Of a stretch of DNA of 64,000 nt, positions 13,377 through 57,460 are shown piece after piece; positions within the stretch are counted from its first letter, which is position 1; each line of letters begins with the position of its first letter. The notes beneath the pieces were generated by a model. That model saw nothing but the letters and a program-made list of their open reading frames with translations. It made no database searches and had not been told where the DNA came from. Origin of the DNA: Nocardioides sp. (GTDB lineage: Bacteria > Actinomycetota > Actinomycetes > Propionibacteriales > Nocardioidaceae); assembly GCF_041393715.1 (NCBI RefSeq), contig NZ_JAWKJQ010000006.1, positions 76,680-140,679 on the forward strand. The letters run 5' to 3'. Made by a program: the position numbers and the translations under genes.

Positions 13377-13381
13377 GTCGA

Positions 13382-13466
13382 CTCCCTTCGCCGGTGCTAA
13401 CCGGATCAGGTTCGGAGGGTCTGCGGCGGTTCCGCACTCTCAGCCCGCGAGGGGCTCCCCTGTCTT
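13382..13466 (-). ncRNA. TPP riboswitch
   Basis: Minus strand GGGGAGC...GCTGAGAG...GACCCTCCGAACCTGATCCGGTTAGCACCGGCGAAGGGA directly upstream of thiB; TAGCAT -10 at 13476-13481. Confidence 0.95.
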
Positions 13467-13488
13467 GTGCCGGCCATGCTACCGGCCG

Positions 13489-17671: not shown

Positions 17672-18226
17672 TCAGCCGAAGTGCAGCCACCCGGTGTTGA
17701 CGCCGCAGCTGAGCTTGGTGTTGACGCAGGCGTAGTCGTTGCCGTTGTAGTTGACCCCCCGCGAGCCGATCACCATCTTGGTGCTGCTGAGCTTCCAGGT
17801 CACCGTCTCCTGGACGTAGAAGTAGCCGGAGCCGACGTTCCAGGTGACGCCCTGGGGCCGGACGGTCTTGGCGTAGCCGAGGTAGGCGCTGCGGTTGACG
17901 GTGCTGATCTTGGCCCAGCTGCTGCCGGTCCAGCGGTAGAGGCGGTACTGCACCGCAACCTCCTGCGCGGCCGTTGCGCTGGACGAGCGGCCGACCGTCG
18001 GGCCGTAGACCACGAGCTGGCGCTGGTAGCAGGTGCCGACCGGGGCACAGGTGTTCACCGTCTTGCCCTGCACCTGGTAAGGCGTGATCGAGCCGGGCGT
18101 GCCGGAGGCGCCGTACAGCTGGACGGCCTGGGCGGCGGAGCCGAGGTTGGTGGCCAGGAAGGCGGCGACGACGGCGACGAGCAGGGCGAGCGAGCGACCG
18201 AGCGTGTGACGGATCTTGGTGTTCAT
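17672..18226 (-). CDS. Hypothetical secreted protein (paralog-like to 39097..39714)
   Basis: Signal peptide ending AAQA; basic, beta-rich mature region with two Cys pairs; AGGAG RBS. Confidence 0.75.
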   Translation of the reverse strand: MNTKIRHTLGRSLALLVAVVAAFLATNLGSAAQAVQLYGASGTPGSITPYQVQGKTVNTCAPVGTCYQRQLVVYGPTVGRSSSATAAQEVAVQYRLYRWTGSSWAKISTVNRSAYLGYAKTVRPQGVTWNVGSGYFYVQETVTWKLSSTKMVIGSRGVNYNGNDYACVNTKLSCGVNTGWLHFG

Positions 18227-18268: not shown

Positions 18269-18301
18269 AATCTGTCGCCCGGCGCTTAGCAACGGCTTAG
18301 C
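18269..18301 (-). promoter_or_regulatory. SARP-type operator/promoter 1
   Basis: GCTAAGC-N4-GCTAAGC-N9-CAGATT on the minus strand. Confidence 0.75.
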
Positions 18302-20715: not shown

Positions 20716-20748
20716 AGGTTCGCGCCCGCCGCTTAGCGACGGCTTAGC
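20716..20748 (-). promoter_or_regulatory. SARP-type operator/promoter 2
   Basis: GCTAAGC-N4-GCTAAGC-N9-GAACCT on the minus strand. Confidence 0.75.
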
Positions 20749-22254: not shown

Positions 22255-22332
22255 CGGCAGGACCCTTCCCATGCGCGGCCCCCCACGGGCCAAACCAGGG
22301 CGCGAGTCTAAGCCAGCCGCTAGCGTTCGGCC

Positions 22333-25266
22333 ATGGAGATCCGGCTACTCGGACCGCTCGAGGTGGCGGTCGGCGACCGGATCGTCCCGCTGGGCTCCCC
22401 CCGGCAGCGCGCCGTCTTCGCGATGCTGGCCCTGGCCGCGCCCGAGGTCGTCTCGACCGACCGGTTCGTGGACGGCCTGTGGGGGGAGGACCCGCCGGCC
22501 AACCCGACGGCCGCCCTCCAGGTGTTCGTCCACGGCCTCCGCAAGGCGCTCAAGGCCGAGGCGCTGGACGGGTTGGTGACCCGCGAGCACACGGGCTACC
22601 GCCTGTCGGTCCCGGCCGACTCGACGGACATCGGCCGGGCCTCGGCGCTCCACGACGCCGCCCGCCGGGCCCGCGACGCCGGCGACCTGGGCTCAGCCGC
22701 GGCCGCCCTCTCGGAGGCACGGTCCCTCTGGCGCGGACCGGCGCTCGCCGACGTCCGGGCCACCCCGTTCGCCGAGCCCGAGGCGGTCCGCCTCGACGAG
22801 CTGCGCCTGCTGGTGGAGGAGGACTACGTCGACGCCCAGCTGGCGCTGGGCCAGCACACCTCGCTGGTCGACCCGCTCAGCAGCGCGGTCAACGAGCACC
22901 CGATGCGTGAGCGGTTCTGGGGCCAGCTGATGACCGCGCTCTATCGCTCCGACCGCCAGGCCGACGCGCTGGCGACCTATGCCCGGGCCCGCGAGCGACT
23001 CGCCGACGAGCTCGGCATCGACCCCGGCCAGGCGCTCCAGCAGCTCGAGCTGGCGATCCTTCGCCAGGACCCCTCGATCGCCCCGCCCACGCCGGAGGCA
23101 CCCGCGGTGGTCACGCCGCGCTCCCCCAGCCGGATCCCCCGGCCGGCGACGCCGACGTTCGGCCGCGACGAGCTCGTGGCCGACGTACGCCGGCTGCTGC
23201 GGCGCGACGAGGTGCGTGTCGTGAGCCTCACCGGGCCCGGCGGGTCGGGCAAGTCCCGGCTGGCGGCGCTCGCCGCGCTGGCCGCCGAGGACGACTTCGC
23301 GGGCGGGGTCGTCCACCTCGCGCTGACCGAGCGCACCGAGGCCGACCAGGTCCTGGCCGAGCTGGCGCTCGCGCTGACCGGCGGCGACGACCTGTCCGGG
23401 CTCGACGGACTCGACCTCGATGCGCTGGTGGTGCTCGACAACCTGGAGTCGGTGGCGGCCGCGCACGACCTGGTCACCGAGCTGGTCGACCGCGCCACCG
23501 GACCGACGGTGCTGGTCACCAGCCGGTTGCCGCTGCGGATCCGCGCCGAGCACGACGTGTCGGTGCCGCCGCTCGAGGTCCCCGCACCCGGCGCCACCGA
23601 GGCCGAGGTGCTGGCGGCGCCGGCCGTGGCGATGTTCCTCGACCGGGCGCACGCGGTCGCCCCCGACACACCCCTCGACGACCGGCTCGACGACGTCGCC
23701 GACCTGTGTCGCTTCCTCGACGGGTTCCCGCTGGCCCTCGAGCTGGCGGCCGCCCAGGTGCGACTGCTCACCCCCGCCGACATCCGGGCAGCACTGGAGC
23801 GCGACCTCGGCGCCCTGCAGGCCCGCGGGGTCGACGTACCCGAACGGCAGCGGACGCTGGCCGCGACCATCGAGTGGAGCTATGACCGGCTCGACCCGCC
23901 GGCCAGACGGGTGGTCGACCGGCTGGCGCTCTTCGAGCGCAGCTTCACCCTGGAGGCGATCGAAGCCGTCTGCGACGACGTCCCCGACGTCCTGGGTGCG
24001 CTCGCCCAGGTGGTGGAGGCCCGCCTGGTGCGGCCCGCCGAGTCGCGGGTGGAGGTGCGGTTCGTCGCCCTCGGCACGGTGCGCGCCTTCGCACGGGCCC
24101 GGCTGCAGGAGCACGACGACACCGCCGACTGGGCCGCCCTGTCCGAGCACCTGCGAGACCGGGTGACCGCCTGGAGCGAGGAGATCGACGGACCGAGCGG
24201 CACCGCCGTGCTCGGCCGCTACGACGACACCGCGGCCGACCTCGACGCCGCCCTCGACCGCGCCCGCGACGAGGGCGAGCTCGACCTCGCCGTCGCGCTG
24301 GCCGAGCTCCTCACCGACTTCTGGATCGCCTCCGGCCGCCTCAGCGACGGGCTGCGGCGGGTCACCGGGCTGCTCGAGGCGACGGAGCTCACCGACACCG
24401 CGCGCGCCACGCTCCACCTGGTGGCCGGCAAGCTGGCCTACCACCTCACCGACTGGGGTCGCACCGCCGAGGAGTGCCGGGCGGCCATCGCACTGACCGA
24501 GGACCCCCGGCTGCTCGCCGACGCCCGCTGTCATCTGGGGGCGGCCCTGGTGGTGACCGGCGACCCGGAGCAGGGGACCGCCCTCGCGCAGGAGGCGCTG
24601 AGCGCCGCCGAGGCCCTGGGGGACTACCGGATCACCGTGGTCGCCCTGTCGATGCTGGCCATCGGATGTGCCGTGCGCGGCGACCTGGCCGGGGAGCGTG
24701 GCTACTACGAACGGCGACTCGCCGTGGTCGGCGACCGCGGCGACGCCGCGCGCCTGGCCGACACCCTCAACACCCTCGCCGAGATCGCCCTCGACGACGG
24801 CGACGCCGCCACGGCCCGGGCCTATGCCTCGGAGTCGGTGGGCATCGCCGGCACCGCGCTGCCGCTGGAGCGTCGGGACGCGACGATCAGCCTGGCGCGG
24901 GCGGCGGCCGTCGAGTCCGATCCCGTCGAGCTCGCCGAGCATCTGCGGGTGGCGACCGAGCTGTCGGACCGCACCGGCCAGGCGCTGGCGGTCGCGCAGT
25001 GCCTGCGGGTCGGCGGCTGCCTGGCGGTCCTCAGCGACGAGCAGCCGCTCGCCGTCCGCGCGTTCGCCGCGGCGCAGCGCCTGTCGCCCTCGCCGTCCGG
25101 CACCGACGAACCCCTCGAGACCGACCTCGCGGCCCGCCTCGCGCAGGCACGGGCGGCCGTCGGGGAACATGCCGCCCGGGAGTGGACGCTGGGCGCCACC
25201 CTCCCGCTCCGGTCGACCCGAGACGGCATCGACGCCCTCGTGGCCCGGACACTAAGCGGCCACTAA
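22333..25266 (+). CDS. AfsR/SARP-family regulator 1 (winged HTH + BTAD + NB-ARC-type ATPase + TPR)
   Basis: IRLLGPLEV, HPMRERFWGQLMTALYRSDRQADAL, GPGGSGKS, LVVLDNLE, LDGFPLALELAAA; TAGCGT -10 6 nt before ATG. Confidence 0.92.
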   Translation: MEIRLLGPLEVAVGDRIVPLGSPRQRAVFAMLALAAPEVVSTDRFVDGLWGEDPPANPTAALQVFVHGLRKALKAEALDGLVTREHTGYRLSVPADSTDIGRASALHDAARRARDAGDLGSAAAALSEARSLWRGPALADVRATPFAEPEAVRLDELRLLVEEDYVDAQLALGQHTSLVDPLSSAVNEHPMRERFWGQLMTALYRSDRQADALATYARARERLADELGIDPGQALQQLELAILRQDPSIAPPTPEAPAVVTPRSPSRIPRPATPTFGRDELVADVRRLLRRDEVRVVSLTGPGGSGKSRLAALAALAAEDDFAGGVVHLALTERTEADQVLAELALALTGGDDLSGLDGLDLDALVVLDNLESVAAAHDLVTELVDRATGPTVLVTSRLPLRIRAEHDVSVPPLEVPAPGATEAEVLAAPAVAMFLDRAHAVAPDTPLDDRLDDVADLCRFLDGFPLALELAAAQVRLLTPADIRAALERDLGALQARGVDVPERQRTLAATIEWSYDRLDPPARRVVDRLALFERSFTLEAIEAVCDDVPDVLGALAQVVEARLVRPAESRVEVRFVALGTVRAFARARLQEHDDTADWAALSEHLRDRVTAWSEEIDGPSGTAVLGRYDDTAADLDAALDRARDEGELDLAVALAELLTDFWIASGRLSDGLRRVTGLLEATELTDTARATLHLVAGKLAYHLTDWGRTAEECRAAIALTEDPRLLADARCHLGAALVVTGDPEQGTALAQEALSAAEALGDYRITVVALSMLAIGCAVRGDLAGERGYYERRLAVVGDRGDAARLADTLNTLAEIALDDGDAATARAYASESVGIAGTALPLERRDATISLARAAAVESDPVELAEHLRVATELSDRTGQALAVAQCLRVGGCLAVLSDEQPLAVRAFAAAQRLSPSPSGTDEPLETDLAARLAQARAAVGEHAAREWTLGATLPLRSTRDGIDALVARTLSGH

Positions 25267-25283
25267 GCCTGGTCACCCAGGCT
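25251..25283 (+). promoter_or_regulatory. SARP-type operator/promoter 3, overlapping the regulator stop codon
   Basis: ACTAAGC-N4-ACTAAGC-N9-CAGGCT; TAA stop 25264-25266 lies inside repeat 2. Confidence 0.75.
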
Positions 25284-25324: not shown

Positions 25325-26791
25325 ATGAGCACGCCCGCCCCCCTTCGCCTGTCCGCGGCCGCGGCCGGACTCGTCTGCGCCGCCCTGCTCGGCACCGCCG
25401 GCGCGTCGCACGCCGACGGCGCCGGCCCGGCGCCGCAGCGCACCCAGGGAGCCGCACAGGCGGGTGCGAAGGCCGCTGCCGCCGAGTCGCCGACCGGTCG
25501 GGCTGCGGCGTTCGACCAGGTGACCCGCCTGGCCCGGCGACACGGCACCGTGACGGTGACGATCATCCTCGCCGAGGCTCCGACCCGGGCGCCCGACGCC
25601 GGGGTGCGCTCCCGGCTCACCGACCAGGCGTCCGCCGGACGGGCGGCCGCACTCCGGGCGCTGGACGGACCCACCGGCACCAGCAGCGTCCCCGGCGCCC
25701 CGGCGATGACGGCCACGGTCGACGCCGCCGACCTGGCCGCTCTGCGCCGCGAGCCGGCCGTGCTGTCCATCGCCCGCAACATCGACTTCCGGGCCGCCGG
25801 CACCACGACCTTCGGCATCCAGGACGGCGTGCAGCTGCCCCGGTGGTGGCACCTGAAGAAGATGGGCCTCGACTGGACCTACGCCCACGGCTACAACGGC
25901 GCCGGCCAGCGGATCGTGGTGGTCGACAGCGGCGTCGACTACACCCACCCCTGGCTGCAGGGCCACGTCGTCGACGGCGCCTGCTTCTCCTCCGACGGCT
26001 GCGGGAACGGACTGTTCTACGCCTACGGCATCCAGGCCGGGAAGAACTGCACCTACGCCGTCAGCTGCGCCCACGGCACCCACGTCGCCCAGACCGCGGC
26101 CGGCAAGTACGGCGCCGCGCGCTCGGCCGGCATCGTCGCGATCAACGCCAGCCACCGCAGCGCCAGCGGCCGGCCCACCTACGGCACCGCCGACCTGATC
26201 AACGCCCTGTGGTACTCCTACTACTACGTCAGCCCGGCCCCGGCCGCCGTCAACCTGAGCATCGGCGGCAGCACGACCTACGCCACCACCTGCGACAGCA
26301 CGAACCAGCCGCTCGCCGACTGGATCACCGCGCTGCGCAGCCGCGGGACGGCCACGGTGATCGCCGCCGGCAACAGCAACTCCTCGACCGGGGTGAGCTA
26401 CCCCGCCTGCATGAGCCGCGCGGTCGTGGTCGGCAACGCGACGCTCACCAGCGCCACCGGGAGGCCCGCGGTGCTCGGCGGCCGGGCCGGGGCCTCCAAC
26501 AGCAACCGGCTGGTCGACCTGTGGGCGCCCGGCACCGACATCTGCTCGGCCGTCCCGACGAGCCTCGACGTCGACGGGACGCGTGACGGGGCCGACTGCA
26601 GCTGGTACGGCACCTCGATGGCCGCTCCCCAGGTCAGCGGCGCGTTCGCGGTGCTGAAGGCGGCACGGCCGTCGTACTCGGTGAACCAGAGCCTCTCGGC
26701 CTTCGTCCGCAACGGCCTGGCGATCACCGACTCCCGCAACGGCGTCACCCGATCGATGGTCAACGTCGCCAACGCGGTGTACTACGGCTGA
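25325..26791 (+). CDS. Secreted subtilisin-like serine protease (S8)
   Basis: Signal and pro-region; catalytic triad VVDSG, HGTHVA, GTSMAAP; oxyanion AAGN. Confidence 0.92.
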   Translation: MSTPAPLRLSAAAAGLVCAALLGTAGASHADGAGPAPQRTQGAAQAGAKAAAAESPTGRAAAFDQVTRLARRHGTVTVTIILAEAPTRAPDAGVRSRLTDQASAGRAAALRALDGPTGTSSVPGAPAMTATVDAADLAALRREPAVLSIARNIDFRAAGTTTFGIQDGVQLPRWWHLKKMGLDWTYAHGYNGAGQRIVVVDSGVDYTHPWLQGHVVDGACFSSDGCGNGLFYAYGIQAGKNCTYAVSCAHGTHVAQTAAGKYGAARSAGIVAINASHRSASGRPTYGTADLINALWYSYYYVSPAPAAVNLSIGGSTTYATTCDSTNQPLADWITALRSRGTATVIAAGNSNSSTGVSYPACMSRAVVVGNATLTSATGRPAVLGGRAGASNSNRLVDLWAPGTDICSAVPTSLDVDGTRDGADCSWYGTSMAAPQVSGAFAVLKAARPSYSVNQSLSAFVRNGLAITDSRNGVTRSMVNVANAVYYG

Positions 26792-38074: not shown

Positions 38075-38893
38075 TCAGCAGTTCACCGCCAGCTCGACGT
38101 TGCAGGCGTCGTTGCCGGGGCCGCCGTAGGCCCGGTCGAAGCCCTGGTTGCCGCGCAGCCGGTCGGCGCCTGCGTGGCCGAACAGCCGGTCGTCGCCCGC
38201 GCCACCGAAGGCACGGTCGTCGCCCGCCCCGCCGTAGACGTAGTCATCCCCGGTGCCACCGTCGAGCCGGTCGGCCGCGCCGTCGCCGAAGAGCTGGTCG
38301 TCGTCTCCGTCGCCGTAGACCTCGTCCCGGCCGCCGTCGCCGTGCAGGTAGTCCTCGCCGGTCGAGCCGCGCAGCCGGTCGTCTCCCGGGCCGCCGTTGA
38401 CCAGGTCGTTGCCGTCGCTGCCGTCGAGCACGTCGCGGTCCGCGCCGCCCCACAGCTTGTCGTCTCCGTCGTTGCCCTGGAGCCGGTCGTTGCCCTTGTC
38501 GCCGAAGAGCTCGTCGTCGCCCCGGTTGCCCTGCACGACGTCGTCGCCCTCGTCGCCGTGGACCGTGTCGTTGCCCGCGTTGCCCTGCAGCCGGTCATCG
38601 CCCTTGCCGCCGAGGATGGTGTCGTCACAGGCACCGCCGGTCACCACGTCGTCGCCGTTGCCGGCGTAGATGATGTCGTGACCGCCGCCGCCGTCGATGG
38701 TGTCGTTGCCCCCGCGCCCGTAGATGATGTCGTTGTACGGCGTCCCGACGAGGTTGTTGTTGGCGCTGTTGCCGAAGATCACCTGCCCGGGCGTGGTGCA
38801 GTCGGGCGGCAGGGCGCTCGCCGTCGCCGGCCCGAACGAGACGCTGGCGAAGCCGGCCCCCAGCAGGGCCGCGAGTGTGATCGGGAACTTCAT
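38075..38893 (-). CDS. Secreted protein with RTX/hemolysin-type Ca-binding repeats
   Basis: Sec signal peptide followed by many GGxGxDxLx nonapeptides. Confidence 0.88.
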   Translation of the reverse strand: MKFPITLAALLGAGFASVSFGPATASALPPDCTTPGQVIFGNSANNNLVGTPYNDIIYGRGGNDTIDGGGGHDIIYAGNGDDVVTGGACDDTILGGKGDDRLQGNAGNDTVHGDEGDDVVQGNRGDDELFGDKGNDRLQGNDGDDKLWGGADRDVLDGSDGNDLVNGGPGDDRLRGSTGEDYLHGDGGRDEVYGDGDDDQLFGDGAADRLDGGTGDDYVYGGAGDDRAFGGAGDDRLFGHAGADRLRGNQGFDRAYGGPGNDACNVELAVNC

Positions 38894-39015: not shown

Positions 39016-39048
39016 GCTAAGCCGGCGCTAAGAGGTGGGCTCGATGGT
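39016..39048 (+). promoter_or_regulatory. SARP-type operator/promoter 4
   Basis: GCTAAGC-N4-GCTAAGA-N9-GATGGT. Confidence 0.72.
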
Positions 39049-39096: not shown

Positions 39097-39714
39097 ATGA
39101 ACACCACCGCCGGCACCGCAGCCGCCGTCCTCGCAACCACCCGGACCCACCGGGCCGCCGCCGCCCGGATCATCGCCGTGTTCGCGGCCGTGGTGTCGTC
39201 GCTGCTGATGACGCTGTTCGCCGCGACCCCGGCCGAGGCAGCCACCACCGTCGGCGCCGCCGGGCGGATCGGCAGCATCACCCTCAACGGGCCGATGATC
39301 AACGGCTACGACGTCGGCCAGCGGCTGGCGAACGGCACCTACTTCTACTCCAAGAACTGGAACGTCGGCGGCTTCACCGTCACCCGGAGCCCCTCGTCGT
39401 ACCGGCAGCGGGTCACGGGGAAGTCGACGATCCAGAAGTGGAACGGAGCCCGGTGGGTCGACATCCAGTCACGCACCTGGTCGGGCACCGTGGCCGGCAC
39501 CGGCACCCTCCGCTTCCCCGGGTGGACCTACTCGCCGACCAACGTCCCCAACAACCGCGCGTCGTACCGCGTGAACTTCCTGATCACCTGGACCAACACC
39601 GCCAACGGCCAGTTGGTCGCCCTCACCGGCGTGCTGCCCAACAAGTACTCCGACAACCGCTGCGCGACCACGTTCTTCACCTGCCGGACCTACACCGACG
39701 GCATCAACTTCTGA
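39097..39714 (+). CDS. Hypothetical secreted protein (paralog-like to 17672..18226)
   Basis: Signal peptide ending AEA; KWNGARW segment, C-terminal Cys pair; AAGGAG RBS. Confidence 0.78.
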   Translation: MNTTAGTAAAVLATTRTHRAAAARIIAVFAAVVSSLLMTLFAATPAEAATTVGAAGRIGSITLNGPMINGYDVGQRLANGTYFYSKNWNVGGFTVTRSPSSYRQRVTGKSTIQKWNGARWVDIQSRTWSGTVAGTGTLRFPGWTYSPTNVPNNRASYRVNFLITWTNTANGQLVALTGVLPNKYSDNRCATTFFTCRTYTDGINF

Positions 39715-40908: not shown

Positions 40909-40938
40909 TGGAGCCGCCTGTCGTGGAGCCGCCTGTCG
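40909..40938. repeat. Tandem 15-bp duplication of the tRNA-Thr 3' end (att-like)
   Basis: TGGAGCCGCCTGTCG at 40909-40923 and 40924-40938. Confidence 0.85.
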
Positions 40939-40999
40939 GAATCGAACCGACGACCTAATCATTACGAGTGATTCGCTCTACCGACTGAGCTAAGGCGGC
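40924..40999 (-). tRNA. tRNA-Thr (CGT)
   Basis: GCCGCCTTAGCTCAGTCGGTAGAGCG...CTCGTAA...GGTTCGATTCC...GGCGGCTCCA; 76 nt with encoded CCA. Confidence 0.97.
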
Positions 41000-48106: not shown

Positions 48107-50782
48107 CTAGCCCGAGGTCGCCTTCTTGGTGGCCTTCTTCGCGGTCTTCTTCGTCGTCTTCTTCGCGGTCTTCTTGGCGCCCCGCTTGGCCGCCTTCTTG
48201 GCCGGACCCTTGGCCCGCCGCTCGGCCAGCAGCTCCGCGGCCCGCTCGAGGGTGATCGCCTCGACGGTGTCGTCCTTGCGCAGGGTGGCGTTGTACTCAC
48301 CGTCGGTGACGTAGTCGCCGAAGCGCCCGCTCTTCACGACCACCGGCTGCCCCGAGACCGGGTCGGCCCCCAGCTCCTTGAGCGGCGCCGCCGCCGCGGC
48401 CCGGCCGCGGGTCTTGGGCTGGGCGTAGATCGCCAGCGCCTCGTCGAGGGTGATGGTGAGCAGCTGCTCCTCGGAGGTGAGCGACCGGGAGTCGGTGCCC
48501 TTCTTGAGATAGGGCCCGTAGCGCCCGTTCTGTGCGGTGATCTCGACACCCTCGGCGTCGGTGCCGACCACCCGGGGCAGGGACAGCAGGGTGACGGCCT
48601 GGTCGAGGGTGATCGTGTCGAGGCTCATCGACTTGAACAGCGAGCCGGTGCGCGGCTTGGCCCCCTTGGGCGCGTCCTCGGGCAGCACCTCGGTGACGTA
48701 GGGGCCGTAGCGCCCGTTCTTGGCGACCACCGGCAGCCCGGTGTCGGGGTGGTCGCCCAGGGCGACCTCGGCTCCCGCCGGGTTGGCGAAGAGCTCGCGG
48801 GCCTTCTCGAGCGTCAGCTCGTCGGGCGGCAGGTCGTCGGGCACGTTGGCGCGGGTGGCCCCGGGCGTGCCCTCGTCGTCGGGCCCCTCGAGGTAGGGGC
48901 CGTAGCGGCCCACGCGCAACACGATGCCCGAGTCGGGCCCGCCCACCGGGAAGGTGGCCAGCTCCTTGGCGTCGATGTCCCCGAGCCCGGTGACCAGAGG
49001 GTGCAGCCCACGCACCCGCTCGGAGCCGTAGTAGAACTCGGCGAGCTCGGAGTTGCGGTCCTTGTCGCCGCGCGCGATCTCGTCGAGCACCGTCTCCATC
49101 TGAGCGGTGAACTCGTAGGAGATGAACCGGGTGAAGTGCTCCTCGAGCAGCCGCACCACCGAGAACGCCAACCAGGCCGGCACCAGCGCCGTGCCCTTCT
49201 TGTAGACGTAGCCGCGGTTGATGATCGTGCCGATGATCGAGGCGTACGTCGACGGTCGGCCGATCTCGCGGTCCTCGAGCTCCTTGATCAGGGTGGCCTC
49301 GGTGAACCGGGCTGGCGGCTTCGTCTCATGGCCGGCGGCGCTCACCGACGCCGCCGTCAACGTCTCGCCCTCCGTCAGGGACGGGAGCCGGGTCTGCTCG
49401 TCGTCACGCTTCTTCGACGAGTCGTCCTGGTCCTCGACGTAGGCCTTCAGGAAGCCGTGGAAGGTGATCGTGCGCCCACTGGCGGAGAACACCACGTCCT
49501 CGCCGCTGGCGGCCGCGCCGCCGAGCCGGACCGTCACGGAGTTGCCGACCGCGTCCTTCATCTGCGAGGCGACCGTGCGCATCCAGATCAGCTCGTAGAG
49601 CCGGAACTGGTCACCGGTCAGCCCGGTCTGACCCGGCGTGCGGAACGTCGCGCCGGCCGGCCGGATCGCCTCGTGCGCCTCCTGGGCGTTCTTGACCTTG
49701 CTGGCGTAGGTGCGCGGCGCGTCGGGGAGGTACTCCGCCCCGTAGAGCTCGCGGACCTGCGAGCGCGCGGCGTTGACCGCGGAGCCCGACAGCGTGGTGC
49801 TGTCGGTGCGCATGTAGGTGATGTAGCCGTTCTCGTAGAGCCGCTGCGCCACCGACATCGTCATCGAGGCGCTCATGCCGAGCTTGCGCGAGGCCTCCTG
49901 CTGCATCGTGGTGGTGCGGAACGGAGGGTAGGGCGAGCGGCGGTAGGGCTTGGACTCCACCGAGCGGACGTCGTAGGTCGTGTCGGCGAGGGCGCCGGCC
50001 AGCGCCTCGGCCCGACCGCGGTCGAGGTGGGCGACGCCGTCCTTCGTGAGCAGACCGTCGGGACCGAAGTCCTGGCCGCGGGCCACCCGCGCGCCGTCGA
50101 CGGAGTAGAGCTTGGCGGGGAACATCCGTGGCTGGTGGTCGGCGCCGGCGTCGAAGGTGCCCTCGAGGTCCCAGTAGGACGCGACCCGGAACGCCATCCG
50201 GTCGCGCTCGCGGTCGACCACCAGACGGGTGGCGACCGACTGCACCCGACCGGCCGACAGGCCCGACATCACCTTGCGCCACAGCACCGGGGAGACCTCG
50301 TAGCCGTAGAGGCGGTCGAGGATGCGGCGGGCCTCCTGGGCCTCGACCAGGTCCAGGTCGAGGTCGCGCGGACTGTCGGCGGCGGCCAGGATCGCCGGCT
50401 TGGTGATCTCGTGGAAGACCATCCGCTTGACGGGCACCTTGGGCTTGAGCTCGTCGAGCAGGTGCCAGGCGATCGCCTCGCCCTCGCGGTCCTCGTCGGT
50501 GGCGAGGTAGAGCTCGTCGGCGTCCTTGAGCAGCTTCTTGAGCTTGGCGATGTGGGACTTCTTGTCGCGCGGGACGACGTAGTAGGGCTGGAAGTCGTGC
50601 TCGACGTCGACGGCGAGCCGGCCCCACGGCTTGTCCTTGATCGCGGTGGGCGTGTCGGCCGCCGACTGGGGAAGGTCGCGGATGTGCCCGATCGACGACT
50701 CCACGACATAGTCCTTGCCGAGGTAGCCGCCGATCGTGCGCGCCTTCGCCGGCGACTCGACGATCACCAACTTGTGTGCCAC
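48107..50782 (-). CDS. topA: DNA topoisomerase I
   Basis: KLVIVESPAKA, ATDEDREGE, SAGRVQS, ITYMRTDS; Lys-rich actinobacterial tail. Confidence 0.97.
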   Translation of the reverse strand: MAHKLVIVESPAKARTIGGYLGKDYVVESSIGHIRDLPQSAADTPTAIKDKPWGRLAVDVEHDFQPYYVVPRDKKSHIAKLKKLLKDADELYLATDEDREGEAIAWHLLDELKPKVPVKRMVFHEITKPAILAAADSPRDLDLDLVEAQEARRILDRLYGYEVSPVLWRKVMSGLSAGRVQSVATRLVVDRERDRMAFRVASYWDLEGTFDAGADHQPRMFPAKLYSVDGARVARGQDFGPDGLLTKDGVAHLDRGRAEALAGALADTTYDVRSVESKPYRRSPYPPFRTTTMQQEASRKLGMSASMTMSVAQRLYENGYITYMRTDSTTLSGSAVNAARSQVRELYGAEYLPDAPRTYASKVKNAQEAHEAIRPAGATFRTPGQTGLTGDQFRLYELIWMRTVASQMKDAVGNSVTVRLGGAAASGEDVVFSASGRTITFHGFLKAYVEDQDDSSKKRDDEQTRLPSLTEGETLTAASVSAAGHETKPPARFTEATLIKELEDREIGRPSTYASIIGTIINRGYVYKKGTALVPAWLAFSVVRLLEEHFTRFISYEFTAQMETVLDEIARGDKDRNSELAEFYYGSERVRGLHPLVTGLGDIDAKELATFPVGGPDSGIVLRVGRYGPYLEGPDDEGTPGATRANVPDDLPPDELTLEKARELFANPAGAEVALGDHPDTGLPVVAKNGRYGPYVTEVLPEDAPKGAKPRTGSLFKSMSLDTITLDQAVTLLSLPRVVGTDAEGVEITAQNGRYGPYLKKGTDSRSLTSEEQLLTITLDEALAIYAQPKTRGRAAAAAPLKELGADPVSGQPVVVKSGRFGDYVTDGEYNATLRKDDTVEAITLERAAELLAERRAKGPAKKAAKRGAKKTAKKTTKKTAKKATKKATSG

Positions 50783-51006
50783 GGACGTCCCTTGCTCGTG
50801 CGGTTCACCGGTTCGGTCCGAGGCGGGCTCCGAGACGAGCCCCGGTCGAGATCCGGGTGGGCGACGGGGCCCACGGCGGAACACGGTAGCGCGAACGTCC
50901 GCGGAGTCCAGCGCGGTGGTCGGTCGGCGGTGGTCGCGAAGGCCCCGGCGCCCACCTGGAGAACGGGGTGCGTCCGGGCGGCTGCGACGTGGGTAGGTTC
51001 GGCTCG

Positions 51007-53832
51007 ATGGCACCTGCGTCCTCCGCTCCAGAGACGCGGGCCGAGGTAAGGCTCCTCGGCCCGTTCGAGGTGCGCGTGGGCGGCCGGCCGGTGACCGTGA
51101 GCGCCGCCCAGCAGCGGGTGGTGCTCGCCGCGCTCGCCCTCCGGGTCGGCGAGCCCGTGACGACCGACACGCTGTGCGACGCGCTGTGGCCCGAGCAGGT
51201 CCCCAGCACCGCCCGCACCTCGCTGCACAACACGATCCGGCGACTGCGGCTGTTGCTTGCCGACGCGGGAGCGGGCGAGCCCCTCCGCACCGGACCCGAC
51301 GGCTATCGGCTCGACCTGCCCGACGGCGCCGTCGACGCCGTGGCGTTCACCAACGGCGTGACCCGGGCTCGCAGGCTGGCGGCCGGGGGCGACGAGGCCG
51401 CCGCGCGGTCGGCGTACGACGAGGCGCTGGGGTGGTGGCGCGGTGAGCCGATGCAGGCACTGGTCGGCGCCGGCTGGCTCGCCGGCCCGGCCGAGCAGCT
51501 GACCGAGCTGCGGCTGACCGCGACCGAGGAGTGGTCCGACCTGGAACGCGCCGCCGGTCGTCCCGAGCGCGCCCTCGAGCGGCTGGCTCCCCTGGCCGAG
51601 GCGCAGCCGCTGCGCGAGGGACTGCGGGCCCGGCTGATGCTGGCCATGCAGGCGGCCGGACGGACGGCGGACGCGCTGGCCCACTACGGCGCCGCGCGGC
51701 GACTGCTGGTCGAGGAGCTGGGCGTGGAGCCCGGCCCCGCCCTGCGCGCTGCCCACGCCGAGGTGCTCCGGCTCGATGAGGAGGCCAGCACGGCCGACAC
51801 CGCCGCACCACTGGTGGCCCCCGCCCAGCTGCCCGCGACCGGCACCTCGGTCGTCGGCCGTGACGACGAGCTCGCCCTGCTCGACGGGGCGCTGCCCGAG
51901 CCCACCGAGCGCCCCGTCGTCTGCGTCGTCTCCGGGGCCGCCGGCGTGGGCAAGACCACGTTGGCGGCGCGGTGGGCGCACCGCACGGCGAGCGCGTTCC
52001 CCGACGGCCAGCTGTGGGTCGACCTGCGTGGGTTCGACGCCCAGGGCCGGCCGCTGACACCGGGGCAGGTGCTGGAGCGCTTCCTGACCGCCTTCGGTGT
52101 GGCCGCCGACGACCTGCCGGTCGACCCCGACGCGGCGGCCGACCTCTACCGGAGCCTGATCGCCGACCGGCGGATGCTGGTGGTGCTCGACAACGCCCGC
52201 GACGCGGCGCAGGTGCGCCCGCTGCTGCCGACGGGCCCGGGCAGCCTGGCCCTGGTCACCAGCCGCCACGACCTGAGCTCGCTGGCCGTCACCCAGGGCG
52301 CCCGGCTGGTCTCCCTGGACGTGCTGCCCGACGGCCCCGCCGAACGCCTGCTGGCCGAGCGGCTCGGCGTGGCTCGGCTGCGGGCCGAGCCGGCCGCCGT
52401 ACCCGAGATCCTGGCGCGCTGCGGCGGCCTGCCGTTGGCGCTGGCCCTGGTCGCCGGGCGGGCGGCGGCGCAGCCCCGGCTACCGCTGCTCACCCTGGCC
52501 GAGCAGCTGCGCGACTCCTCCCTGGACGTGCTCGGCCTGGGCGACCCGGCGACCGACCTGCGGGCCGTGCTGTCCTGGTCGCTCGACGCGCTGACGCCCG
52601 ACACCGCGCGGGCCTTCGCGCTGCTCGGCGTGCACCCCGGTCCCGAGGTGGACGCGGCCGCGCTGGCGAGCCTGGCCGAGGTGCCGGTCCGCCAGGCCCG
52701 CACGACACTGGACGAGCTGGTCCGCGCCCACCTCGCCGTGCCGCGTGGCCCGCACCGCGTCGCCATGCACGACCTGGTGCGCGACCACGCCCGCGAGCTG
52801 GCTCGCGGCCTGCTGACCGCGGACGAGCGCGTCGACCTGGTCCGCCGGCTGGCCGACCACTACCTGCGGTCGGCGTATGCCGCGACCCGGACGCTGTTCA
52901 CCACGCCGTTGCCGTTCGCGCTCGACCCACCCGTGCCGGGCGTCGTCACCGAGACCTTCGCCGACCCCGAGCACGGCACGGCCTGGCTGCAGGCCGAGCT
53001 GCCCGCCCTGGCCCGCGTGCTGGAGGCCGCCGCCGAGGTGCCCGGGCTGGCGGACTACCCGTGGCGGATGGCCCGCGCGGTGAGTGGCTACCTGTGGGAC
53101 CGCTGCGCCTGGGCCGACATCGCGCACCTGCACGGGCTCGCCCTGCGGGCCAGCCTCCGCGCGAGCGACCGAGTCGGGGAGGCCGATGCCCGTCACGGCC
53201 TCGGCGACGCGTACGCCGGCCTCGGACGGTTCGACGAGGCCGGCGCCGAGCTGGCGCGGTCGCTCGATCTCTACGCCGCCATCGGCGACGTCATGGGTGA
53301 GAGCGATGTGCGCTGCACCATGGGCCGGATGCTCGAGCTGGCCGGCGACGCCGAGGGCTCGATCCACCACACCGGCCTCGCGCTGGAGCTCTACCGGCAG
53401 ATCGGCGACCGCAGCGGCGAGGCGGTCGCGCTCAACAACATCGGCTGGATGCACTCCACCCTCGGCGACTTCGAGCCCGCGCTGGCCAGCTGCACGGCCG
53501 CGCTCGACCTCTACCGCGCCGACGGCGACCACGCCGGGGTCGCCTACGCCCTGGACAGCATGGGCCGTGCCTACCTCGGGCTCGGCGACCTGGCCCGGGC
53601 CATCGAGTGCTACGCGGAGGCCGCCGACAGCGCTCGGGCGATCGGCCAGCACTTCAACCGGGCCGCCAACCTCACCCACCTGGGCGACGCCCGGCACGCG
53701 AACGGGGAGCCCGAGGCGGCCCGCGTCGCCTGGCGGGATGCGCTCGTCCTCCTCGAGGAGATCGGGCACCCCCGGGCGGAGTCGCTCCGGTCCCGGCTGG
53801 CGCTGCTCGGCGCCGGGACCGCCTCGCGTTAG
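51007..53832 (+). CDS. AfsR/SARP-family regulator 2 (winged HTH + BTAD + NB-ARC + TPR)
   Basis: VRLLGPFEV, QPLREGLRARLMLAM, GAAGVGKT, LVVLDNA, CGGLPLAL, TPR repeats; TAGGTT 7 nt before ATG. Confidence 0.93.
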   Translation: MAPASSAPETRAEVRLLGPFEVRVGGRPVTVSAAQQRVVLAALALRVGEPVTTDTLCDALWPEQVPSTARTSLHNTIRRLRLLLADAGAGEPLRTGPDGYRLDLPDGAVDAVAFTNGVTRARRLAAGGDEAAARSAYDEALGWWRGEPMQALVGAGWLAGPAEQLTELRLTATEEWSDLERAAGRPERALERLAPLAEAQPLREGLRARLMLAMQAAGRTADALAHYGAARRLLVEELGVEPGPALRAAHAEVLRLDEEASTADTAAPLVAPAQLPATGTSVVGRDDELALLDGALPEPTERPVVCVVSGAAGVGKTTLAARWAHRTASAFPDGQLWVDLRGFDAQGRPLTPGQVLERFLTAFGVAADDLPVDPDAAADLYRSLIADRRMLVVLDNARDAAQVRPLLPTGPGSLALVTSRHDLSSLAVTQGARLVSLDVLPDGPAERLLAERLGVARLRAEPAAVPEILARCGGLPLALALVAGRAAAQPRLPLLTLAEQLRDSSLDVLGLGDPATDLRAVLSWSLDALTPDTARAFALLGVHPGPEVDAAALASLAEVPVRQARTTLDELVRAHLAVPRGPHRVAMHDLVRDHARELARGLLTADERVDLVRRLADHYLRSAYAATRTLFTTPLPFALDPPVPGVVTETFADPEHGTAWLQAELPALARVLEAAAEVPGLADYPWRMARAVSGYLWDRCAWADIAHLHGLALRASLRASDRVGEADARHGLGDAYAGLGRFDEAGAELARSLDLYAAIGDVMGESDVRCTMGRMLELAGDAEGSIHHTGLALELYRQIGDRSGEAVALNNIGWMHSTLGDFEPALASCTAALDLYRADGDHAGVAYALDSMGRAYLGLGDLARAIECYAEAADSARAIGQHFNRAANLTHLGDARHANGEPEAARVAWRDALVLLEEIGHPRAESLRSRLALLGAGTASR

Positions 53833-53860
53833 CGCGGCGTTAGCGGCCCGCTGCCAGGTT
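53827..53860 (+). promoter_or_regulatory. SARP-type operator/promoter 5 (variant heptamer), overlapping regulator 2 stop codon
   Basis: GTTAGCG-N4-GTTAGCG-N9-CAGGTT; TAG stop 53830-53832 lies inside repeat 1. Confidence 0.7.
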
Positions 53861-53976
53861 CGTGGCGTACCTGGCCACGAGTGCCCCCCTGGTCGCGCAG
53901 CGACCGCACGGGGTCGCGCTCACGTCGCGGCGACGTCGAGACGCCGCCGCGGCACCGCACCGAAAGGGGCGTCCGA

Positions 53977-55701
53977 ATGCCTCGACCCGTCCGTGGCGCG
54001 CGGCTGCTGCTCAGCGCGCTCGCCTGCCTGCTCGCCCTCTCCCTCACCGCGCCGGCCCTGGCCGACGACGGCTCGACCGACCCCTCGCCGTCCACCACGC
54101 CGACGGTGAGCAATGCGACGATCCTGGCGGCCAAGGCCTACCCGGGCGTGCAGCTCATCGCGACGACGTACACCGCGACCGTGTCGGTGCAGGTGCCGGT
54201 GATCAACCAGGCCGCACTGACCCAGCTCGCGCAGCGGATCGCCACCCAGGCCGTGCTCGGGACCATCGACACCTCCGACGAGGCGATCACCGAGGCGATC
54301 GTCGACGCCGTCGTGAAGTCGCCCAACACCTACTTCCTGCCCGGCCCGCGGACCTACAGCCGCCGCAACAGCCTGACCGGCGTCGGCACCGGCTGGGCGA
54401 TCACGCCCGACGGCTACATGATCACCGCCGCCCACGTCGTCCGGACCGCGCGGCCCGAGCTCCGCCGGGCCTTCGCCGTGAACCGGCTGAACAAGCTGGG
54501 CCAGCAGTTCGTGCGGGGGCTGCAGAACAGCGGCACCCGCTTCACCCCCGACCAGGTCGAGCGACTCCGCAAGGCGATCCTCGGCTGGCTGGCCGCGCAC
54601 CTGTCGGTCACCAACCTCAACGTCAAGGTCGCCGCCGAGCTCGCGGTCGGGTTTGACGGGCTCGGCAAGGACCAGCGACCGATCGAGGCCGAGGTGGTCG
54701 ACATCGGCAAGCCCTACCCGGGCAGCGACATCGCCCTGCTCAAGATCGACGGCCAGGAGCATCTGCCGACGATCGAGGTCGGCAGCAACGACGACGTCTC
54801 GCCCGGTTCGACGGTGCATGTGGTCGGCTTCCCCGCGGCGTCCACCTTCCTGCCGTCGATGTCGCGTGACGCCCAGGTGCAGCCGACCGTCACCGAGGGA
54901 CCCGTCACCGCGGTCAAGAGCACCAGCTCCGGCATGCCGGTCTTCCAGACGCAGGCACCCGCCAGCCCCGGCAACTCCGGCGGCCCGGTGCTGACCGACC
55001 GCGGGTCCGCCGTGGGAGTGCTGGTGGCCAGCGCCGTGGGCAGCGACGGGGTCGCCGCCCAGGGGCAGAACTTCGTGATCCCCGCCAGCGAGGTGCAGGA
55101 CATGCTCGAGCGCAACGGCGTCACGCCCGAGCGCAGCGACACCACCGCGACCTACGACCAGGCCGTCGACGAGTTCTACGCCGACCACTTCGAGGCCGCG
55201 CTGCCGCTGTTCGAGAAGGTCGAGACGCTCTACCCGGCGCACCCGTTCGCGCAGAAGTTCATCACCGACAGCAAGACCGCGATCGACGAGGGTCGCGACA
55301 GGACACCCGCGCCGGCGGAGGAGCCGGGTGTCAGCCCGCTGCTGCTCGGCGGGGTGGGCGCGGCGCTGCTGCTGCTCCTCGCCGGTGGTGGGTTGGCGCT
55401 GTGGATGCGCGGTCGGCAACGGGCGGCTGCCGGGCCGGCGTACCCGGGCGGCGAGGCGGGCGCTGGGCCGGGCGCATGGATGCCGCCCGCGTCGCCGCCG
55501 TACCCCTCGCCGGCGTACGCCGCCCCGGCCGAGCAGCAGCCCGCACCGGTCGAGGTGCCCGCTGCGGCCCCTGCGGAGGCGGCGGTCGAGGCACCGACGG
55601 CGCCGGCCGCGATGCCGACGAGCCCGCCGCCGCAGCCCGTCTGGGACCCGGACCGGGGTTGGTACCTGCCCGAGACCGACCCCTCGCCCGAGTCGCCCTG
55701 A
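53977..55701 (+). CDS. Trypsin-like (S1) serine protease with signal peptide, C-terminal TM anchor and Pro-rich tail
   Basis: ITAAHV, SDIALLK, GNSGGP triad; C-terminal LLLGGVGAALLLLLAGG. Confidence 0.9.
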   Translation: MPRPVRGARLLLSALACLLALSLTAPALADDGSTDPSPSTTPTVSNATILAAKAYPGVQLIATTYTATVSVQVPVINQAALTQLAQRIATQAVLGTIDTSDEAITEAIVDAVVKSPNTYFLPGPRTYSRRNSLTGVGTGWAITPDGYMITAAHVVRTARPELRRAFAVNRLNKLGQQFVRGLQNSGTRFTPDQVERLRKAILGWLAAHLSVTNLNVKVAAELAVGFDGLGKDQRPIEAEVVDIGKPYPGSDIALLKIDGQEHLPTIEVGSNDDVSPGSTVHVVGFPAASTFLPSMSRDAQVQPTVTEGPVTAVKSTSSGMPVFQTQAPASPGNSGGPVLTDRGSAVGVLVASAVGSDGVAAQGQNFVIPASEVQDMLERNGVTPERSDTTATYDQAVDEFYADHFEAALPLFEKVETLYPAHPFAQKFITDSKTAIDEGRDRTPAPAEEPGVSPLLLGGVGAALLLLLAGGGLALWMRGRQRAAAGPAYPGGEAGAGPGAWMPPASPPYPSPAYAAPAEQQPAPVEVPAAAPAEAAVEAPTAPAAMPTSPPPQPVWDPDRGWYLPETDPSPESP

Positions 55702-55927
55702 GTCGCCTCGGGCACTCCGCCGGCCGGCCGTGGCCGGCGAGGACACACGCCAGGTGCTGCGCAGGGACCCGCGCTGGGGACCGGTCCCGCGCTGTCGCCG
55801 GCTGGGTCGGCAGGGAGTGACCCGAGGTGCGCCCGGAGTCCCGAGCTCCGCGGCGAACCGGGCGCGGGACCTCGCAGCGGCCCCCAGCCGCGGCAACGGT
55901 CCCGCGCCCGGTGCCGGCATCGGGGGT

Positions 55928-57460
55928 TCAGGCAGGCTCCAGGAACCCCTCGGCCACCAGGTCCTCGACCGCGGGCAGCGTCGAGGCGAGCAGCGTGGCG
56001 GGGTCGTGGCCCAGGAGCTGGGCGACCGCCGAGAGGATCTGGCCGACGGTGAGGTCGCCGTCGCACGCGCCCACCAGCGCAGCCTCGACGGTGTCGACCC
56101 GGCGGGCGCGGCGGAGCCCCCGCTGCTGCCGCAGCACGATGCTCTCGGGGTCCTCGGCACCCGGCGTACCGCTGGTCTCCTGGACGACGTCGGCGCGTTG
56201 ACGCAGCACCAGGGCCTCCGGGTCGGAGGTCTCCGCGAGCAGGTCGGCGGCGGCTCCCCAGCCGGAGATCGCCGGCGCGATCGGCTGCTCGACGGCGTAC
56301 GGCCAGTCGAGCAGCTCCACCCGGGGCGACCGGTCGACACGACGCAGGTTGATCCACCCGAAGCCCACCCCCTCGACACCCTGGGCGTCCAGCCAGGACA
56401 GCCAGGTGTCGTAGCGCTCGGCATAGTCGGCGGCACCGTGGTGGCCCGAGTCCTTGAGCCACAGCTCGACGTACTCCGCCGGGTCGAGGACCTCGCGCTG
56501 GACCACCAGGGCGTCACAGCTGCCGTCGAGCCACCCGGCGAGCCGCTCGTCCCACGGCTGGTCCGTCGCGATCACCCAGTTGGCCAGCACCTGACACCAA
56601 CCGCCGGGGGCCAGGTGGTCGGGAGCGCGGCGGACCAGGTGCTCCACGACCTGGTCGCCGGGCAGCCCGGAGTCGCGGTAGACGAGCCGCTCCCCGGTGG
56701 CCGGGCTGATCACGAACGGCGGGTTGGTGCTGATCAGGTCGAAGCGCTCGCCGGCCACCGGGTCGAAGAGCGACCCGTCGCGCACCTCGATGCCCGGCAG
56801 GCCGTTGAGGTCCGCGTTGAATCGGGCGATCCGGAGTGCGCGCGGGTTGACGTCGGTCGCGACCACCTCGGTGGCGTGCCGAGCCAGGTGGAGCGCCTGC
56901 ACGCCGCAGCCGGTGCCCAGGTCGAGCGCCCGACCCACGTCGTCGCGGATGGTTTGCTGGGCCAGGCTGGTCGAGGCGGGGCTGATGCCGAGCACGTGGT
57001 CGGCGCCGACGCGGGCGCTGCCCCCGTCGAGGCCCGGGGTCAGGTCGGAGACGACCCACAGGTCGTGGTCGCCCGCGGCGTCGGGGGCGGCGTAGGGCCG
57101 CACGTCGAGGTGCGCGGCCACCTCGCCGACGCTGGTCACGAGCAGTCCCTCGACGGCGAGCGCGTCGACGAGGCCCGGCAGCGCCCGGTCGGCGGCCGCC
57201 CTGGTGACCGGCACCTGCAGGAGGAAGAGCCTGGTCAGCGTCTCCAGCGGTGAGCCGCCTGCGGTCCGACGCAGGCCGGGGGTCGTCTCGTTGCGGGCCA
57301 GCGCCTCGTGGGCCCGCCGGCCGAGCAGCCCCGCCACCTCGTCGTAGGTGTACGTCGCCCTGGCCAGCGCCTCACCCAGCCGCGTCGCCAGCTCCCCGGT
57401 CGCCTCCCGGGGCGCCTCCCCCGGCGCCTCCCCCGGCGCCTCCTCATCCCCTCCGCTCAC
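55928..57460 (-). CDS. Class I SAM-dependent methyltransferase
   Basis: ALDLGTGCGVQA, TDVNPRAL, STNPPF; conserved position next to topA/hppA. Confidence 0.88.
   Translation of the reverse strand: MSGGDEEAPGEAPGEAPREATGELATRLGEALARATYTYDEVAGLLGRRAHEALARNETTPGLRRTAGGSPLETLTRLFLLQVPVTRAAADRALPGLVDALAVEGLLVTSVGEVAAHLDVRPYAAPDAAGDHDLWVVSDLTPGLDGGSARVGADHVLGISPASTSLAQQTIRDDVGRALDLGTGCGVQALHLARHATEVVATDVNPRALRIARFNADLNGLPGIEVRDGSLFDPVAGERFDLISTNPPFVISPATGERLVYRDSGLPGDQVVEHLVRRAPDHLAPGGWCQVLANWVIATDQPWDERLAGWLDGSCDALVVQREVLDPAEYVELWLKDSGHHGAADYAERYDTWLSWLDAQGVEGVGFGWINLRRVDRSPRVELLDWPYAVEQPIAPAISGWGAAADLLAETSDPEALVLRQRADVVQETSGTPGAEDPESIVLRQQRGLRRARRVDTVEAALVGACDGDLTVGQILSAVAQLLGHDPATLLASTLPAVEDLVAEGFLEPA

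Follow-up and report, generated by a model that had tools for sequence, protein, structure and literature searches.

A conserved direct repeat between an AfsR-like regulator gene and a membrane-anchored S1 protease gene of Nocardioides is a probable SARP box

In a 64,000-nucleotide stretch of Nocardioides sp. DNA (contig NZ_JAWKJQ010000006.1; this whole stretch is hereafter the window, and coordinates count from its first letter), a gene for an AfsR-like large SARP of 941 aa, which we call regulator 2 (51007..53832, + strand; ATG at 51007, TAG at 53830-53832), is followed on the same strand by the gene of a 574-aa serine protease of family S1, HtrA-like and without a PDZ domain (53977..55701, +). 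Between the two lies a pair of 11-bp direct repeats, of which the upstream copy (CGTTAGCG plus cgg, 53827..53837, +) holds the stop codon of the regulator gene, and the downstream copy (CGTTAGCG plus gcc, 53838..53848, +) occupies the -35/spacer position of what we take to be the protease promoter. The gene pair is flanked upstream by the divergent topA (48107-50773, -) and downstream by a methyltransferase gene (55928-57460, -), followed by genes for an H+-pyrophosphatase and a DEAD/MZB helicase. An earlier note, made from the letters of the window, had described this locus as the second of two regulator-protease cassettes of one design, and its statements about the sequence itself (the genes, the stop codon within the box, the N9-CAGGTT spacing, the protease, the flanks and the -10-like hexamers) were all correct. 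We propose that the repeat is a SARP box, that is, the operator of an activator-dependent protease promoter used by the adjacent regulator 2, a reading to which we give a probability of roughly three in four.

Regulator 2 combines an OmpR-type winged helix-turn-helix (wHTH), a BTAD domain, an NB-ARC P-loop NTPase and TPRs, with Pfam matches to BTAD (1.6e-32, residues 109-254), NB-ARC (3.4e-10) and TPR_12 (3.4e-19) and a weak match to Trans_reg_C (residues 35-93). The N-terminal OmpR-type wHTH followed by BTAD is the arrangement of the SARP family, and is also found in regulator 1, the other large SARP encoded in the window (22333..25266, +); the NB-ARC domain with Walker A and HD motifs and the C-terminal TPRs place regulator 2 among the AfsR-like large SARPs. 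Its top solved relative is AfsR itself (8k60; E 2.7e-90 over residues 14-812, ~35% identity), with which its Walker A GVGKTT and its MHD motif align. Since it scores 449.9 bits on the NCBIfam AfsR equivalog NF053617, below the cutoff of 1430, regulator 2 is, judged by this profile, an AfsR-like paralogue and not AfsR. A -10-like hexamer, TAGGTT (50994..50999, +), lies 7 nt 5' of its ATG, and in 6-7 of 8 regulator 2 orthologous loci a hexamer of the TANNNT type is again present, 7-8 nt 5' of the start codon; regulator 1 likewise has TAGCGT (22321-22326, +) 6 nt 5' of its ATG, a hexamer that stands 6-7 nt before the start in 4/4 loci. Leaderless mRNAs of actinobacteria fit with a -10 hexamer just 5' of the start codon. 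The earlier note's leaderless assignment for both regulators is consistent with hexamers found at 6-8 nt in most orthologs, and the promoter of regulator 2 is probably leaderless. Just 5' of the start of one regulator 2 ortholog (locus L005, ~3960-4030) we also observed a perfect tandem duplication of ~32 nt (GAGTTTGCGCCGACTCGCGGTGTTTCCTG twice).

The protease gene (Pfam Trypsin_2, 2.5e-21) encodes, in order, a signal peptide, an N-terminal region of ~100 aa, the protease domain, a short helical domain, a transmembrane helix and a Pro-rich cytoplasmic tail; its N-terminus is signal-like (MPRPVRGARLLLSALACLLALSLTAPALA), and the C-terminal hydrophobic helix is followed by RGRQR and then by the Pro-rich tail. 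The catalytic triad H153, D251 and S334 (GNSGGP) is invariant in 41 homologues, placing the enzyme in peptidase family S1. Upstream of the start codon lies a ribosome-binding site, GAAAGGGG (53962..53969, +), and most orthologs have GAAAGG(G/C)G ahead of ATGCCTCG. The nearest families are HtrA/DegP and MarP, whose His-Asp-Ser protease domain gives the closest match, and MarP is membrane-tethered as well; the window protease nevertheless falls under the curated cutoffs of all of them. It differs from these families in having no PDZ domain, an anchor that is C-terminal and comes after a cleavable-looking signal peptide, a Pro-rich cytoplasmic tail, and an insert of ~70 aa between the catalytic His and Asp. 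Membership in HtrA/DegP (S1C) is not supported, with no PDZ found by Pfam and an NCBIfam Do-family score of 67.6 against a cutoff of 416. The insert itself (residues ~154-250, window 54435-54730) consists of ~70 extra, apparently helical residues relative to the Trypsin_2 model, whose alignment spreads 212 protease residues over 144 model positions.

The two copies of CGTTAGCG (53827-53834 and 53838-53845) are separated by cgg, and the second is followed by 9 nt, gcccgcTGc, and then by CAGGTT (53855-53860). The direct repeats thus begin 11 bp apart, at 53827 and 53838, and the distance from the 3' repeat to the putative -10 hexamer is 8 bp if the repeat is read as GTTAGCGG and 9 bp if it is read as CGTTAGCG, with no good -35 element; both are features of SARP boxes. 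A TG one base 5' of the hexamer fits an extended -10, and we accordingly read TGc-CAGGTT (53852..53860, +) as a candidate extended -10 (TGn) with a suboptimal hexamer. In the region 50700-56000 we found neither a canonical sigma-70 -35/-10 pair nor a terminator. In reverse orientation the box is not followed by any -10-like hexamer on the minus strand, as judged by inspection of the sequence, and that orientation was rejected.

We then asked how often such repeats would be expected in the window, whose base composition is 73% G+C. The pattern TWAGC-N6-TWAGC gave 7 strand matches at 5 window sites, against 0.00 expected from 100 dinucleotide shuffles, and even with one mismatch allowed a Markov-2 simulation predicted 0.09 box matches. 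Only 5 loci of the window have an exact 8-mer that recurs at 11 nt, and 4 of the 5 have a TWAGC-type core. A chance origin of the repeat can be excluded. Up to 3 mismatches, the window holds no further regulator 2-type box beyond chance.

For comparative analysis, one genome per species was scanned with a protease profile, which yielded 25 relatives; N. exalbidus (L083) was added separately. A regulator 2 ortholog (50-67% identity) lies directly 5' of the protease gene in L001, L003, L004, L005, L006, L021 and L023, and L002 carries a truncated copy. GTTAG[CT]-N5-GTTAG[CT] is found between regulator and protease in 9/9 loci carrying both, and GTTAG-N6-GTTAG in 0/17 loci where a protease relative (37-58% identity) occurs without a SARP; these SARP-less relatives adjoin housekeeping genes such as Sua5, ligA and cobQ. 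The earlier note had named absence of the repeat from orthologous loci as an observation that would speak against its proposal, and the repeat is present in all nine loci with regulator and protease. When the intergenic regions of eight of the nine loci are aligned (N. exalbidus was left out, and the L021 row extends only to the end of its second repeat), no columns but GTTAG.G and GTTAG are invariant. The motif CTG[CG][CG]AGNNT, which contains the hexamer and in which its A2 and T6 are invariant, stands at one fixed distance from the box in all nine, while the box stands 70-159 nt from the protease ATG.

The genomic surroundings of the pair vary. The order seen in the window (topA, regulator, protease, methyltransferase, pyrophosphatase) recurs in L023 and in N. 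exalbidus, in L005 topA adjoins the methyltransferase gene and the regulator-protease pair comes after them, and in five other genomes the pair is away from topA; in all, the trio of regulator, box and protease occurs in at least three genomic contexts. Because these contexts differ between genomes, regulator, box and protease are seen to be inherited and relocated as one unit within a Nocardioidaceae clade. The arrangement in the window looks like an insertion between a normally adjacent topA and methyltransferase gene, in agreement with the earlier note. These comparisons establish a lineage-specific event, in which an AfsR-like regulator captured a protease gene of wider distribution.

A structurally solved counterpart is the AfsR-afsS pair of Streptomyces coelicolor (structures 8k60, 8jke and 8hvr), in which afsS lies directly downstream of afsR. 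As in the window pair, the regulator has the order wHTH, BTAD, NB-ARC-type NOD (nucleotide-binding oligomerization domain) and TPR, and the target gene is directly 3' of it on the same strand. At the afsS promoter the AfsR box is 22 bp long and consists of two 11-bp direct repeats at -40 to -19, of which the first 8 bp of each are conserved and contacted and the last 3 bp are not; the box overlaps a poor -35 (TTCAGC), the -10 is suboptimal (CACTGT), and two SARP protomers sit side by side, touching sigma region 4 and the RNA polymerase core (PMC10936776). The window box is built alike, as 8+3 and 8+3 bases in place of a -35, 8-9 bp from a putative weak -10 of the CANNNT type (CAGGTT), and the quoted general rule for SARPs puts the 3' repeat 8 bp from the -10 (PMC10936776). 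AfsR R92 reads the T at repeat position 3 (PMC10936776), and both the equivalent Arg in regulator 2 and the T at position 3 of the window box are kept.

The two systems also differ. The presumed target in the window is a secreted, membrane-anchored S1 protease in place of the small regulator AfsS, the repeat reads CGTTAGCG, unlike the afs sequence (-35 part TTCAGC), and the host is a member of the Nocardioidaceae from activated sludge, in which nothing within the window links the pair to a biosynthetic gene cluster. The recognition helix, ALAAVRTYASRLRK in AfsR, is ARTSLHNTIRRLR in the regulator 2 group, where it is essentially invariant among box-bearing loci; residues 87, 88, 91 and 95 are H, N, R and L in regulator 2 and R, T, S and K in AfsR. 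In the regulator 1 group it is ALQVFVHGLRK, again essentially invariant. The earlier note's suggestion that the two regulators recognize distinct boxes is borne out insofar as both helices and boxes differ between the groups; the differing helices are consistent with distinct box specificities in what is a small sample.

Other SARPs are more distant parallels. The small SARPs ActII-ORF4, DnrI and RedD have no NOD or TPR, are encoded within antibiotic gene clusters and use TCGAG-type heptamers; they share with regulator 2 the module of DNA-binding domain and BTAD. Their direct repeats are spaced at 11 bp (or 22 bp), with the 3' repeat ~8 bp from the -10 (rule via PMC10936776). EmbR of Mycobacterium tuberculosis (2fez) has the SARP fold, matches residues 5-271 of regulator 2 with an E of 1.1e-34, and acts on cell-envelope, not antibiotic, genes. 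Its C-terminus is an FHA domain instead of NB-ARC/TPR, and its targets are arabinosyltransferase genes.

We favor the SARP-box reading because the geometry matches that of the afs box on every point, with the R92-equivalent Arg and T3 retained. It is further supported by the phylogenetic footprint, in which the GTTAG columns are invariant and the spacing of box and -10 is fixed, by the co-occurrence of the box with the regulator (9/9 versus 0/17) and the joint movement of the trio, by the lack of a canonical sigma-70 promoter or terminator between the two genes, by the essentially invariant recognition helix of the box-bearing group, and by the close structural homology of regulator 2 to AfsR in its DNA-binding, BTAD and NOD domains. 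By analogy with AfsR at afsS, two regulator 2 protomers would bind head-to-tail, one to each CGTTAGCG, on the 11-bp repeats in the -35/spacer region, and the bound dimer would stand in for the -35 and bring the RNA polymerase holoenzyme to TGc-CAGGTT, the weak extended -10. Transcription would start at ~53867-53869, and the mRNA of the secreted, membrane-anchored S1 protease would have a leader, with regulator 2 itself probably made from a leaderless mRNA. The NB-ARC/TPR part presumably gates regulator 2 activity upon some signal. What the sequences show is the domain architecture, the geometry of the box, its conservation, its co-occurrence with the regulator and the joint relocation of the trio; binding, activation, the transcription starts and the existence of such a signal are what we infer from these comparisons.

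Several points weigh against this reading. All box-bearing loci belong to one clade, and the co-occurrence statistics are therefore not phylogenetically independent. No RNA runs with this sequence were found, the organism being present in DNA metagenomes of activated sludge and wastewater only. Each half-site of GTTAG-N6-GTTAG is a single base away from the GTnAC type that OmpR-family response regulators use, so that another binder is conceivable, and, since no terminator follows the regulator gene, part of the protease expression could come from read-through. Finally, the promoter region contains a conserved motif that the SARP box leaves unexplained and that may hint at a second regulator: ACCTGGCC (53869..53876, +), 8-9 nt after the -10 and thus at about +1 to +9, has the form ACCTGGC[CA] in 8/9 orthologs, with equivalents after the putative -10 at L001, L003, L004, L005, L021, L023 and L083. 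This may be where that second regulator binds, or the mRNA's 5' end may be conserved. Together with GCCAGGT at the -10, ACCTGGC makes a partial palindrome, and we considered a GCCAGGT/ACCTGGC hairpin as a selected RNA or DNA structure; this candidate was rejected, as the right arm is kept and the left arm varies with no compensatory change. The 110-nt protease leader matched no Rfam element even at E=1.

The resemblance to GTnAC half-sites leads to the first of the alternatives, in which the direct repeats are the site of an unlinked response regulator of the OmpR/PhoB family (GlnR-, AfsQ1-, PhoP- or MtrA-like), tying protease expression to a nutrient status such as that of nitrogen or phosphate, and the adjacent SARP regulates something else. 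These families do use an 11-nt periodicity, proteases are plausible targets under nutrient stress, and binding by the SARP is something that we infer. Nonetheless, position 5 is a G in 18/18 half-sites, and in the window and 86 fetched loci (about 1 Mb) the box pattern occurs solely beside regulator 1 or regulator 2 orthologs. Moreover, box, regulator and protease move jointly, and protease relatives without the SARP are also without the box. We therefore regard a response-regulator site as unlikely.

It is similarly improbable, in our estimate, that regulator and protease are co-transcribed from the leaderless regulator promoter and that the repeat acts on the transcript or on the regulator, as an autoregulatory 3' site or a roadblock. 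Such an operon would suit two genes on the same strand with a stop-to-ATG gap of 144 nt and no intrinsic terminator, and a box that overlaps the stop codon in 5/9 loci. It would leave unaccounted for the TGn-NANNNT element, kept in all orthologs at a fixed spacing from the box as befits a promoter, and the occurrence of box plus hexamer 5' of genes that do not follow a regulator (18269-18301, 20716-20748 and 39016-39048); in the analogous afsR-afsS pair, too, afsS has a separate AfsR-dependent promoter. A functionless repeat, arisen by chance or by neutral tandem duplication at the gene end, would agree with its shortness (2 x 8 bp) and with the included stop codon, as in a slipped duplication of a gene end, and is effectively refuted by conservation, GTTAG staying unchanged between diverging flanks in 9 species-level orthologs and the repeat being fully intergenic in four of them, and by the 7 matches observed where 0.00 are expected.

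Returning to the SARP box, we considered whether the position of the stop codon within the repeat is part of the design. This was rejected, since the overlap exists in only 5/9 orthologs; in the remaining 4/9 the regulator stops 22-57 nt 5' of the box. We regard the overlap as incidental, because in DNA of such G+C content the TAG-bearing box would be the first stop for an open reading frame (ORF) entering it in two of the three frames.

The other large SARP of the window, regulator 1, is a protein of 977 aa with a wHTH, BTAD, a P-loop (GPGGSGKS) and MalT-like TPRs (Pfam). The view that both regulators share one BTAD-NB-ARC-TPR architecture did not hold: they are 35% identical over the first ~310 residues only, Pfam finds no NB-ARC in regulator 1, just TPR_MalT, and its homologues have HTH_77, so that it falls outside the AfsR-like large SARPs as delimited above. 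Orthologs at 50-82% identity exist in Nocardioides. Downstream of the gene, a box ACTAAGCG-gcc-ACTAAGCC followed by N8 and CAGGCT (25251..25283, +) precedes an S8 subtilase gene (25325-26791; Peptidase_S8 2.9e-25); it is kept in N. marmoribigeumensis (L080) and found only where the S8 gene exists.

Nor is this a cassette of one regulator and one protease. Three further strong repeats of the same type, absent from the earlier note, lie at 18284-18301, 20731-20748 and 39016-39033. The first belongs to a box GCTAAGCC-gtt-GCTAAGCG, N8, CAGATT (18269..18301, -) 5' of a gene for a secreted 184-aa protein (17672-18226), and its counterpart in L082 (N. rubriscoriae) is a triple repeat; the second to GCTAAGCC-gtc-GCTAAGCG, N8, GAACCT (20716..20748, -) 5' of a gene for a secreted, GH123-like protein of 773 aa (18350-20671); and the third to GCTAAGCC-ggc-GCTAAGAG, N8, GATGGT (39016..39048, +) 5' of a gene for a 205-aa protein (39097-39714). 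The first two are conserved in L080, and N. marmoribigeumensis keeps three orthologous boxes altogether. All four window promoters thus consist of a GCTAAGC/ACTAAGC double repeat with an 11-nt period, N8 and NANNNT, and all four products have signal-like N-termini. The constant partner of regulator 1 orthologs is not the S8 protease either, but a divergent adjacent gene for 497-521 aa (20764-22257, -, 497 aa in the window; equivalents at L080 8426-9919, L081 8396-9889 and L082 1800-3365) that has no Pfam or NCBIfam match. Because its box type precedes four genes for secreted proteins, regulator 1 probably controls a small local regulon of four promoters rather than a two-gene cassette. A putative autoregulatory box 5' of regulator 1 (22309, TAAGC/CTAGC) was rejected, being absent from L081 and L082. 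Divergent from the box-preceded 205-aa gene lies a gene (38075-38893, -) for a 272-aa protein in which RTX calcium-binding nonapeptide repeats make up nearly the whole sequence (HemolysinCabind 2.4e-54).

We next looked for the design outside this clade. Three AfsR-like genes from other genera were sampled, and one shows it: in Micromonospora sp. HM5-17 (L085), TGTGCGGA-aaa-TGTGCGGA, N8 and CAGCCT follow an AfsR-like gene at 7873-7908 and precede a gene for a 1261-aa FG-GAP/ricin-B-lectin protein, itself followed by a GH43 gene. Upstream of the same Micromonospora regulator, at ~4925-4960, we noted ACGTTCGG-gc-ACGTTCGG with a 10-nt period, 9 nt and TAGGCT, possibly a site of another regulator. 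Among 48 diverse AfsR-like metagenome loci (31-47% identity), no exact 8-mer repeat at 11 nt was found within 225 nt downstream (0/48), and repeats matching at 7 of 8 positions occur at 11 loci against 4.8 +/- 2.1 in shuffles, a weak excess to be read beside the scores of 10 and 9 for the control periods 9 and 12. The downstream neighbor is convergent in 19 of the 32 loci where it could be called. The widespread module class suggested in the earlier note finds no backing in these counts, and the design is not established as general across AfsR-like regulators.

Actinomycetota encode thousands of AfsR-like regulators. Their targets are largely unknown, and 58% of them lie outside biosynthetic clusters (2026 preprint 10.64898/2026.09.02.748808); in our full-text literature searches neither SARP-controlled protease genes nor these boxes were found described. 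With the present locus, one such family gains a probable direct target, a membrane-anchored protease, together with a predicted 22-bp operator, and has in Nocardioides exalbidus a carrier that can be cultured; a second regulator family can be connected with a probable regulon of four promoters, all in front of secreted-protein genes. How SARPs are understood to work is unchanged, the locus being one more instance of a promoter design already known; it also illustrates that SARP operators can be revealed by comparing adjacent intergenic regions, without experiments. More speculatively, and with considerable doubt on our part, NLR-like large SARPs outside Streptomyces might serve as dedicated on-switches for secreted or surface hydrolases and lectins (the S1 and S8 proteases, the GH123-like enzyme and the FG-GAP/ricin-lectin protein) rather than for antibiotic clusters, with regulator, box and target forming a small relocatable module in which box and recognition helix evolve together. 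If this is true, part of the large 'ectopic' AfsR-like class, the targets of which counted as unknown as late as 2026, would be assigned a function and a rule for finding its targets.

Elsewhere in the window, Rfam identified a tRNA gene (40927-40999, -; RF00005, 72.9 bits) and a thiamine pyrophosphate (TPP) riboswitch (13366-13471, -; RF00059, 65.4 bits), the latter overlapping the listed ATG (13376) of the ORF 12303-13376 (-).

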